Source: Pilibacter termitis (GTDB taxonomy: Bacteria > Bacillota > Bacilli > Lactobacillales > Streptococcaceae). Taken from it: a stretch of DNA of 24,000 nt. Below are positions 1,143-19,481 of the stretch, one piece after another (positions within the stretch are counted from its first letter, which is position 1; each line of letters begins with the position of its first letter). A program made the position numbers and the translations under genes. A model generated the notes under the pieces. That model was not told where the DNA came from, did not search any database, and saw nothing but the letters and a program-made list of their open reading frames with translations. Location: NCBI RefSeq assembly GCF_900167335.1, contig NZ_FUXI01000013.1, forward strand, positions 41,153-65,152. The letters run 5' to 3'.

Positions 1143-1757
1143 GAAAAGCGTAGAAGTGCGTTTTGAAGTCTGTGGCAGTGAGCCATGTCGTTTATTTAAT
1201 CGAAACGTAGTTTCGATCGACATTGCGAACAGCCACCAGACTTCAGCACTTCGTAGCTAGACAAAGAAAAGCGGAGAGGGGCGTTTTGAAGTTTGTGGCA
1301 GTGAGCCGTACCGTTTACTTGCTAGAAACGGTAGTTTCTAGCGGTACTGCGAACAGCCACCAAACTTCAGCCCCTCGTAGCTAGACATAGAAAAGCGTAG
1401 AGGGGCGGTCAGTGGCTTGTCGCAGTGAGCCATGCCATTTACTTGCCTGAAGCAGAGCTTCAGGTGGCATTGCGAACAGCGACCAAGCCACTGCCCCTCG
1501 TAGCTAGACAAAGAAAAGCGAAATGGTGCGTTTTGGAGTTTGCAACAGTGAACACTGTCGTTTATTTACTAGAAACGTAAGTTTCTAGCGACATTGTGAG
1601 TAGTTGCCAGACTTCAGCCCCTCGTAGCTAGACAAAGAAAAGCGTAGAAGTGCGTTTTGAAGTCTGTGGCAGTGAGCCATGTCGTTTATTTAATCGAAAC
1701 GCAGTTTCGATCGACATTGCGAACAGCCACCAGACTTCAGCACTTCGTAGCTAGACA
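1143..1757 (+). repeat. Tandem array of five ~123-bp imperfect-palindrome (long hairpin) units
   Basis: Unit starts, anchored on gaaaagcg, are 1143, 1266, 1390, 1513 and 1637. The junction cgtagctagacaaagaaaagcg is conserved. Each unit is self-complementary over about 100 nt. Units 1 and 5 differ at one base. See findings. Confidence 0.92.
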
Positions 1758-1783
1758 AAGAAATAGAAAAGGAGCTGAAAAAC

Positions 1784-13389: not shown

Positions 13390-13426
13390 TCTAGTTACGA
13401 GGTGCTGAAGTCTGGTGGTTGTTTGC
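13390..13426 (-). repeat. Orphan half-copy of the 123-bp repeat unit (3' arm, inverted orientation)
   Basis: tctagttacgaggtgctgaagtctggtggttgtttgc compared with the reverse complement of unit 1 bases 1225-1261 (tctagctacgaagtgctgaagtctggtggctgttcgc) gives 33/37 identity. Confidence 0.75.
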
Positions 13427-14865: not shown

Positions 14866-14894
14866 TTGTTTAATCACAGGAGTTAGTTTAGAAT
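14866..14894 (+). promoter_or_regulatory. Putative sigma-A promoter of the toxin mRNA
   Basis: TTGTTT (14866-14871), a 17-nt spacer, then TAGAAT (14889-14894). Confidence 0.5.
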
Positions 14895-15008
14895 GGTTTT
14901 AGGGAACGAAAGTTTAATTGACGGTAGCTAAATACTTTTTGAGAGGAAGTGATGCCTATGAAAGTAGGATTTAAAGTTCGCATTCTAACGAAAGGATTAG
15001 CACTTAAA

Positions 15009-15104
15009 ATGACTGTTGCAGAGGCTCTGTCATTGATGTTAGCGTTTGGCTCTTTTGTCGCAACGCTCATCTTTGGTATCCTTGAAGCCAACAAGAAAAA
15101 GTAA
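15009..15104 (+). CDS. Small hydrophobic peptide, TxpA/BsrE/BsrH-like type I toxin ('putative holin-like toxin' family)
   Basis: Not in the ORF track. ATG 15009 to TAA 15102-15104 gives the 31-aa peptide MTVAEALSLMLAFGSFVATLIFGILEANKKK, with one TM helix and a KKK tail. It resembles B. subtilis BsrE (MSTFQALMLMLAIGSFIIALL..., from memory). In-frame upstream ATGs at 14952 and 14958 (RBS gagaggaag) would give 50- or 48-aa forms. Confidence 0.65.
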   Translation: MTVAEALSLMLAFGSFVATLIFGILEANKKK

Positions 15105-19326: not shown

Positions 19327-19481
19327 GGGCTCCTCTAAAAACTCCGCTTAAGACTAAATTAGCTAGTTTTTCGATTTTCGAGAAAATCGACGAAAGCTAT
19401 GTGGTTCATAGGTTGAGGAGATTGACAAAGAAAATCGGAAAACTAGCAATTTAGGATAAGTGCGAGTTTTTAGAGGTGCCC
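19327..19481. repeat. MITE-like palindromic element (family B), 155 bp with ~52-bp terminal inverted repeats
   Basis: The left arm gggctcctctaaaaactccgcttaagactaaattagctagtttttcgattttc (19327-19379) is about 80 percent identical to the reverse complement of the right arm (19430-19481, ending tttttagaggtgccc). The element is flanked by ataa on both sides. It encodes no ORF. Confidence 0.7.

Follow-up and report, generated by a model that had tools for sequence, protein, structure and literature searches.

The question raised by this locus is why an intergenic hairpin would hold a non-canonical core and a bulge constant while its helices vary from copy to copy. A 24,000-nt stretch of the Pilibacter termitis genome (contig NZ_FUXI01000013.1, positions 41,153 to 65,152 of the forward strand; hereafter the window) carries five head-to-tail hairpin units of 124 nt between the genes uppS and cdsA (array at 1143..1760, + strand; Tandem Repeats Finder period 124, 5.0 copies, with the units also delimited by nhmmer), each with a tandem G.A/A.G core and a U-rich bulge. 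Across the genome-wide family to which this array belongs, core and bulge are constrained far more strongly than the covarying helices that surround them. We interpret the unit as a putative protein-recognition platform on an intergenic RNA hairpin, transcribed in the sense direction and mobile now or in the past, and we place the probability of this reading at about one half.

Constraint on the core and bulge of a hairpin family

A BLAST search of the array against its own genome (2.79 Mb, 59 contigs, 98.7% complete) returned at least 154 matches, and an nhmmer profile built from the five window units recovered 700 non-overlapping units in 303 arrays of one to nine units each, amounting to 77 kb or 2.8% of the genome. 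None of the arrays (0/303) mixes strands. No family in Rfam 15 corresponded to the unit at gathering or permissive thresholds (the best sub-threshold match, CRISPR-DR20, scored 21 bits with 42 as the cut-off), and literature searches, including ones directed at repeats of this kind, did not turn up the 124-nt repeat. Every unit of the array folds into the same hairpin of ~100 nt (-38 to -66 kcal/mol, z -4.0 to -8.4) whose stability was reached in 0 of 200 shuffles, and the minus-strand fold of these units is 4-10 kcal/mol less stable than that of the plus strand.

Column statistics were taken over the 483 full-length units of the genome. Read from its base, the unit opens with a head rich in purines (GAAAAGCG) and the 7-8 bp of helix A; a 4-nt bulge on the 5' side (G18, U19-Y21) separates this from helix B/C, which has 13 bp and a bulged C94. 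The core comes next, then the 6 bp of helix D, an 8-nt 5' bulge reading U-U-U-A-Y-U-U-R, and an 8-bp apical helix closed by a 3-4-nt loop; its 3' tail is GUAGCUAGACAAAG. What the initial annotation had described as an 8 x 8 internal loop is best seen as a helix segment with the order of pairs already sketched there, namely an A.A mismatch, two Watson-Crick pairs, the tandem G.A/A.G, two further Watson-Crick pairs and a C.U mismatch (A35.A89, G36-C88, Y37-R87, G38.A86 / A39.G85, R40-Y84, C41-G83, C42.U82). Both strands of the core read G-Y-G-A-R-C, and the resulting duplex has two-fold symmetry around two central purine-purine pairs. The tandem G.A/A.G is retained in nearly every copy (G38 in 480, A39 in 483, G85 in 480 and A86 in 483), as is the A.A mismatch (A35 in 483, A89 in 479, both together in 479/483). 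The pairs closing the tandem GA are canonical in 95% and 88% of units and covary (Y37-R87 is UA in 367, CG in 78 and UG in 16; R40-Y84 is GC in 302, AU in 96 and GU in 29). In the upper bulge, U49, U50 and A52 are present in 483/483 units, so that the conserved UUUAYUU(R) bulge first noticed in the five window units extends to the whole set.

The stems are highly variable, with two to four pair types at many positions (at pair 32-92, for example, 189 copies have AU, 178 have CG and 100 have GC), yet they remain 95-100% paired. In a set of 77 units, 96.7% of cells were paired, compared to 83% after shuffling and 34-44% with slid partners; 0 of 500 shuffles reached the observed pairing, and 27 of 35 pairs showed double changes, almost all of which are transitional (G-C to A-U). 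Adjusted mutual information is 0.55-0.86 between the opposing arms of a helix, which lie up to 90 nt apart, compared to 0.07-0.43 for neighbouring segments of the same arm. The helices thus assort as paired modules, and the covariation is more than subfamily inheritance. We also considered the 5'-Y-GA-R-3' context of the core as a sign of sheared pairs and dropped it, given that purine/pyrimidine polarity is kept at almost every pair.

Constraint was then compared between parts of the hairpin in 294 independent pairs of close relatives (edges of a minimum spanning tree with at most 8 differences). Differences per column per pair were 0.119 in the lower bulge, 0.107 in the apical loop, 0.064 in the tails, 0.029 in paired columns, 0.021 in the 8-nt bulge and 0.0028 in the six G.A/A.A core columns, which places the rate of change in the core ~40-fold below that of the loops and ~10-fold below that of paired columns. 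Counted directly, 5/1764 core cells had changed versus 233/1764 cells of loop columns (Fisher p ~1e-65), and U49, U50 and A52 had changed in 0/882. Stem changes in the same pairs comprised 283 single changes that break a pair, 236 that give G.U and 78 double changes. Because the core changes ~10 times more rarely than paired columns, it is protected beyond base pairing itself, which points to a sequence-specific constraint on the core beyond hairpin stability alone. Ascertainment does not account for this, as the core contributes only 6 of the 124 profile columns and match scores reach 134 bits, with full units at ~100 or more. These rates bear out the proposal, made from five units, that a non-Watson-Crick core and bulge are held far more tightly than the covarying helices around them, and that the element is unlike a neutral DNA palindrome.

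The same rates bear on an explanation that needs no partner, in which the tandem GA and the bulge are founder features of a master copy that recent amplification and gene conversion, along with general selection favouring a hairpin that is stable and harmless, would have maintained. We regard this as unlikely. It has in its favour that tandem GA is thermodynamically benign and that covariation which is nearly all transitional matches slow drift; however, the contrast between core, paired columns and loops arises within the same copies, and gene conversion would not spare certain columns. Core positions also decay in orphan half-units: A35, G38, G85 and A89 have changed in 10/78 cells (small numbers) in isolated half-units, which cannot fold, versus 10/1932 in full units.

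Within the window, nhmmer bounds the five units at 1143-1266, 1266-1389, 1390-1513, 1513-1637 and 1637-1760, all on the + strand. Direct reading of the letters of unit 1 gave a core 5' half of A GU GA GC C (AGTGAGCC, 1177..1184), a 3' half of U GC GA AC A (TGCGAACA, 1224..1231) and, from letters and fold, an 8-nt 5'-side bulge of TTTATTTA (UUUAUUUA, 1191..1198), exactly as first reported. One core is shared by units 1, 2, 3 and 5, again in agreement with the initial annotation, with AGUGAGCC at 1300..1307, 1424..1431 and 1671..1678 of units 2, 3 and 5 and UGCGAACA at 1348..1355, 1471..1478 and 1718..1725; the bulge is UUUACUUG in units 2 (1314..1321) and 3 (1438..1445) and UUUAUUUA in units 4 (1561..1568) and 5 (1685..1692). 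Unit 4, with AGTGAACA (AGUGAACA, 1547..1554) opposite TGTGAGTA (UGUGAGUA, 1595..1602), retains the tandem G.A/A.G while the neighbouring pairs covary to G-U, U-G, A-U, C-G and A-U, and the apical loops of the five units read gta, ggta, aga, gtaa and gca, both as previously noted. The units meet at a conserved junction, exemplified by GUAGCUAGACAAA-G-AAAAGCG at 1253..1273 (+), which combines two TAG stops in different frames, an A-rich linker and the purine-rich head of the next unit.

Several other features of the hairpin were observed. Bulge columns 53 and 56 (window 1195/1198 and 1318/1321) covary nearly without exception: 246 units have C..G, 232 have U..A and 5 have something else. The two positions are too close for mutual pairing, and C..G also occurs in one copy from another genome (L078). 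This covariation may reflect a tertiary or protein contact, or simply tight linkage. A possible second non-canonical motif lies at many unit bases, where columns 8-10 / 111-113 (window 1150-1152 / 1253-1255) place GAA opposite GUA (G.A, A-U, A.G), and the G.A/U-A/A.G arrangement of the unit base also replaces the core tandem GA in the foreign homologues L039 and L046. At least nine variant units of 184-185 nt were present in the loci examined (e.g. L011:1745-1929 on the - strand and L024:1748-1932 on the + strand); they contain an insert of 60 nt, highly conserved and with a hairpin of its own, that sits immediately after the ACU at the 5' foot of the apical helix, and part of this insert is an inverted copy of the apical stem-loop.

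Orientation, placement and spread of the units

Placement was assessed on a crude gene map based on open reading frames (ORFs; 2429 genes, 85% coding). Gaps between co-directional genes contain 171 arrays in sense and 16 in antisense orientation, and 165 versus 10 (165/175) once copies borne by a MITE (miniature inverted-repeat transposable element; described below) are removed. The median distance from the upstream stop codon to the array is 6 nt, and a stop within 12 nt or a start within 35 nt adjoins 135 of the 165 sense arrays. Many arrays finish directly at the Shine-Dalgarno sequence of the next gene, which is sometimes supplied by the truncated head of a further unit, and where genes converge, arrays are found past the stop codon but ahead of the terminator hairpin, within the 3' untranslated region (UTR). 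At lagging-strand gene pairs, which oppose replication, arrays follow the genes 14:5, indicating that array orientation is set by the direction of transcription and not by the replication strand. We favour RNA as the probable active form because of this orientation, the location of arrays in 3' UTRs and between cistrons, and the greater stability of the sense-strand fold.

The window illustrates this placement. The array occupies the gap from the uppS stop (1135) to the cdsA start (1784); uppS (374-1135) encodes undecaprenyl-diphosphate synthase, with a Pfam Prenyltransf match on its ORF, the flanking cdsA ORF matches Pfam CTP_transf_1, and dxr and then an RseP-type protease gene follow downstream of cdsA. 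The same junction was read in two relatives and measures 36 nt in one, while in the other the cdsA start overlaps the uppS stop codon; a metagenome-assembled genome (MAG) of the same genus was excluded from this comparison, as its contig breaks inside cdsA. Elsewhere in the window, an orphan 3' half-unit of the hairpin family (13390..13426, - strand) is followed directly by GAGGAG, in agreement with unit tails adjoining ribosome-binding sites. A separate Rfam match, to rli28, lies at 14887-15082 (+; 53.9 bits, gathering cut-off 45).

How the units spread can be read in part from a carrier, a palindromic MITE of ~155 bp with inverted ends (GGGCACCTCTAAAAACTC...) and ~60 genome copies, one of which lies in the window (19327-19481; a further copy is, for example, at G000:C10:24009). 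The MITE is flanked by 4-bp repeats (e.g. TTAA, ATAT, ATAA), no transposase matching it was found in the genome, and hairpin units have repeatedly inserted at its centre: 24 copies are empty, 12 hold a single unit and a few hold longer arrays. Comparison of filled and empty copies defines an insert of exactly 122 nt, GAAAAGCG...CTAGACAA, between CATA and GGTTGAGGAG, with no target duplication and a boundary that is ambiguous by 1 nt. The unit ends GAAAAGCG and CTAGACAA are not inverted repeats, and the unit thus has neither the terminal inverted repeats nor the target duplication that characterise a MITE. One and the same MITE point is occupied by at least three unit types, and by arrays of one to three unlike units in differing orders.

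The arrays themselves provide further evidence. For 66% of units the closest relative lies in another array (mean 6.5 differences), adjacent units differ as much as random pairs do (medians 29 and 30), and 15 of 141 adjacent pairs are syntenic between arrays; a local duplication signal is present at 34%, compared to 0.5% expected. Nearest relatives elsewhere together with unlike neighbours suggest that arrays grow mainly by single units arriving from elsewhere, with some local duplication. The upstream flank of arrays is A-rich with a final G, often right after TAA, and the downstream flank is often GAG or GGAG. In the model that we propose, units would enter singly at the intergenic junction of stop codon, A-rich stretch and Shine-Dalgarno sequence, leaving no target duplication. 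The unit tail (TAG..ACAAAG) and head (AAAAGCGgAGAGG) would mimic such a junction, so that new units would land beside old ones on the same strand, and this mimicry would explain tandem growth in one orientation.

This mode of insertion also bears on a rival explanation, in which the hairpin acts as single-stranded DNA, its mismatches and bulge mark the site of a strand-specific recombinase or transposase (IS200/IS605, REP/RAYT or attC-like), and the observed conservation is that of mobilisability. In its favour are exact insertion with neither target duplication nor terminal inverted repeats, units that join arrays singly from elsewhere and a GTAG adjoining the stem; tandem G.A mismatches are stable in DNA too, and any function of the resident copies is something that we infer. 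Searches of the 98.7%-complete genome, however, returned no match to Y1/RAYT/IS200 transposases (PF01797, for which control genomes did match), TnpB (PF07282), reverse transcriptase (PF00078) or rve-type transposases, and found no multi-copy transposase family, the multi-copy families being housekeeping genes. IS200/IS605-type elements track the replication strand, whereas arrays on the lagging strand track genes, and the core is depleted of changes even between close relatives that are resident in the genome. The units accordingly fall outside the IS200/IS605 and omega-RNA systems (no PF01797 or PF07282 match, and the 14:5 ratio) as well as retrons and group II introns (no PF00078 match). We consider a single-stranded DNA role possible but doubtful.

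As side observations on this genome, it seems almost free of insertion sequences (no rve, Y1, TnpB or RVT match) yet holds two abundant non-autonomous repeat families, and the families with the most paralogues are those of ABC ATPases, GH1 hydrolases and response regulators.

Homologues, motif class and a possible partner

To place the unit in a broader context, a covariance model of it (R1) was run on 150 further genomes of the family, representing 10 other genera. Full-length homologues were recovered in four other genera, and the five positive genomes, which were searched exhaustively, contain 1-12 copies each. There was no match in 114 Streptococcus genomes (95 + 19), and 132 genomes of other Lactobacillales families gave one weak match only. 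A BLAST search with the array found nothing in plasmid or phage collections, nor in 200 genomes of the family, the homologues being reached by the covariance model only. According to a pattern scan, the hosts are Floricoccus tropicus, F. penangensis, several 'Streptococcaceae bacterium' MAGs and 'Enterococcus sp. MMGLQ5-1'. The foreign copies, too, have a tendency to begin at stop codons, and the context of single copies in two other genomes showed no associated gene.

Of the foreign copies, 30 are distinct, and 29 of these retain the bulge (UUYAUUNA) and apical helix despite ~50% divergence elsewhere; the tandem GA is strict in ~8, replaced by other purine-purine combinations in ~12 and by Watson-Crick pairs in ~4. 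Homologues lacking the GA core or the bulge would have refuted the initial annotation, and the outcome is divided, with the bulge kept (29/30) and a strict tandem GA present in a minority (~8/30). These counts make the bulge and apical hairpin the ancient part of the element and the invariant GA core a trait of the amplified lineage. For the partner-free explanation introduced above, the counts cut both ways: foreign homologues exchange GA for Watson-Crick pairs or other mismatches with the fold intact, which speaks in its favour, while retention of the bulge at such divergence argues against it.

Two Floricoccus genomes permit a closer comparison. A locus of F. tropicus (L069, G020:C26:45407-45657) has two tandem units and its orthologue in F. 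penangensis (L068) has one, and as these genomes are 93-97% identical, this change of one unit must be recent. Orthologous Floricoccus copies were discarded as uninformative on long-term selection, the two genomes being 95-97% identical. In another orthologous pair (L062 and L063), we observed a double change in the pair beside the tandem GA (C-G versus U-A) and a single bulged U immediately 5' of the G.A pairs.

The core can be assigned to a described motif class. Tandem-GA is one of the four internal-loop classes of RMDetect, alongside K-turn, C-loop and G-bulge (PMC12510878), and a 2x2 loop of 5'-GA-3' opposite 5'-GA-3', closed by Watson-Crick pairs, is present in 480-483 of the 483 copies. 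The unit shares with this class the 2x2 G.A/A.G between Watson-Crick pairs and the 5'-Y-GA-R-3' context on both strands, and it differs in the fixed A.A and C.U mismatches around a symmetric GYGARC/GYGARC and in having ~700 copies in one genome. K-turn and loop-E-type sites, both raised in the initial annotation, fit less well. The loop E or sarcin-ricin motif (G-bulge), an asymmetric loop with a bulged G, a U.A trans Watson-Crick/Hoogsteen pair and an A.A or G.A platform, can be set aside, as the unit's loop lacks any bulged G and is symmetric. Under the K-turn (or K-turn-like) alternative, the core would bind the genome's only L7Ae-family protein, a homologue of YlxQ/YbxF encoded at G000:C30:29574-29831. 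The tandem G.A/A.G that is a K-turn hallmark, where trans sugar-Hoogsteen pairs begin the non-canonical stem, is invariant in the units at the level of sequence. K-turns are defined by a strand with three unpaired nucleotides opposite a strand with none (PMC12510878), and in the unit this 3-nt bulge is missing at the G.A pairs, which are instead flanked on both sides by covarying Watson-Crick pairs (columns 36-37/87-88 and 40-41/83-84) in a two-fold symmetric arrangement; the real bulges (columns 18-21 and 49-56) have no G.A pairs following them. We thus consider a K-turn highly improbable.

The data instead fit a specific recognition surface on a folded single strand, and we return to the protein-recognition platform as our preferred interpretation. 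In this mechanism, the hairpin repeat would be carried within mRNAs in the sense direction, and the G.A/A.G core, the A.A mismatch and the UUUAYUUR bulge would together form the recognition surface of the 124-nt unit. The symmetric core duplex would suit a dimeric or groove-reading protein, and the bulge, 6 bp above the core, may kink or open the stem beneath the 8-bp apical helix. The transcribed hairpin would then be bound or cut by a factor that reads core and bulge, most likely an RNA-binding protein or ribonuclease, and this factor could insulate, stabilise or process the neighbouring cistrons. More speculatively, the ~700 sense hairpins may constitute a genome-wide intercistronic RNA system, read by a probably dimeric protein through GYGARC/GYGARC plus the bulge so as to process, insulate or stabilise cistrons, and spreading by transposase-free, junction-mimicking insertion directed to the stop-codon/Shine-Dalgarno boundary; we put this forward as a tentative extension. 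We know of no description of such a recognition code or targeting mode for bacterial repeats.

Several observations weigh against the protein-recognition platform. The proposal that RNA is the active form draws on orientation and placement only, and an excess of G.U over A.C, which we had considered as proof of the functional strand, was dropped, as it is 3.0:1 on the leading and 1.6:1 on the lagging strand and partly reflects mutational strand bias. No protein family is enriched beside the arrays, and no candidate partner gene was found. The sense bias of foreign copies is weaker (13:6), and the tandem GA, which is not conserved in most of them, may be a lineage-specific elaboration and not the primary determinant. 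The insertion model draws on a single well-defined filled/empty site together with flank statistics, and selection for the ability to spread, acting not on each resident copy, could account for part of the constraint.

Relation to known interspersed repeats

The spread and role of small interspersed repeats such as BOX, REP and ERIC in bacteria are still poorly understood, and the family described here is an unusually clean case. One genome holds hundreds of natural variants of one hairpin, whose helices, loops and non-canonical core evolve at measurably different rates and which is placed precisely at gene junctions with no resident transposase found. These data form a ready mutational map for a search for the partner protein, allow such repeats to be tested as modules of mRNA processing or insulation, and supply natural variation from which the tolerance of a tandem-GA motif to altered surroundings can be read.

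Several known systems share features with the units. Integron attC sites (e.g. the 123-126-bp VCRs) act as bottom-strand DNA, with gene cassettes between them, at one locus by intI. They resemble the units in length, in forming arrays, in conserving structure more than sequence, and in their extrahelical bases and unpaired centre, which serve as marks, whereas the units form 303 dispersed, cassette-free arrays. ERIC/IRU elements (127 bp) and the Correia elements of Neisseria are likewise hairpin repeats of ~125-150 bp within transcription units. Their RNA is cut by RNase E or RNase III, with an orientation-dependent effect (summarised in PMC3049150); in contrast to the units, they are MITEs with terminal inverted repeats and a TA duplication, which occur singly and in both orientations and have no invariant tandem-GA core.

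REP/BIME elements (PMC3733652) are high-copy extragenic palindromes that, like the units, occur in clusters, form imperfect hairpins with conserved mismatches and have a GTAG beside the stem (3' of the stem in the units), and they affect mRNA stability (PMC3733652). REPs are 20-40 nt long and alternate in orientation within BIMEs, whereas the units are 122-124 nt and always head-to-tail. REP/RAYT systems also have a Y1/RAYT partner, for which this genome gave no PF01797 match, and the unit is not the short palindrome with a GTAG/CGTC head that typifies them.

The closest known systems are small interspersed bacterial repeats, above all the pneumococcal BOX elements, which are found in the same bacterial family (PMC3049150). 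BOX elements and the units are both intergenic repeats of ~100-200 nt with a tandem module, are predicted to form stable RNA stem-loops, insert into other repeats and make up a few percent of the genome. BOX elements have the structure boxA-boxB(n)-boxC and are co-transcribed with adjacent genes (Croucher et al. 2011, PMC3049150). Only boxB is reiterated, within an A...C frame whose terminal inverted repeats resemble ISSpn2, whereas here the whole hairpin repeats and has no terminal inverted repeats, a distinction drawn from the description of BOX and not from BOX sequences. Pneumococcal repeat families are reported to be over-represented between convergent genes (PMC3049150, Table 1), and the units lie mainly between co-directional gene pairs, ~94% of them in sense orientation. 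The covariance model of the unit also matched none of the 114 Streptococcus genomes. The units further differ from BOX in their ultra-conserved non-canonical core.

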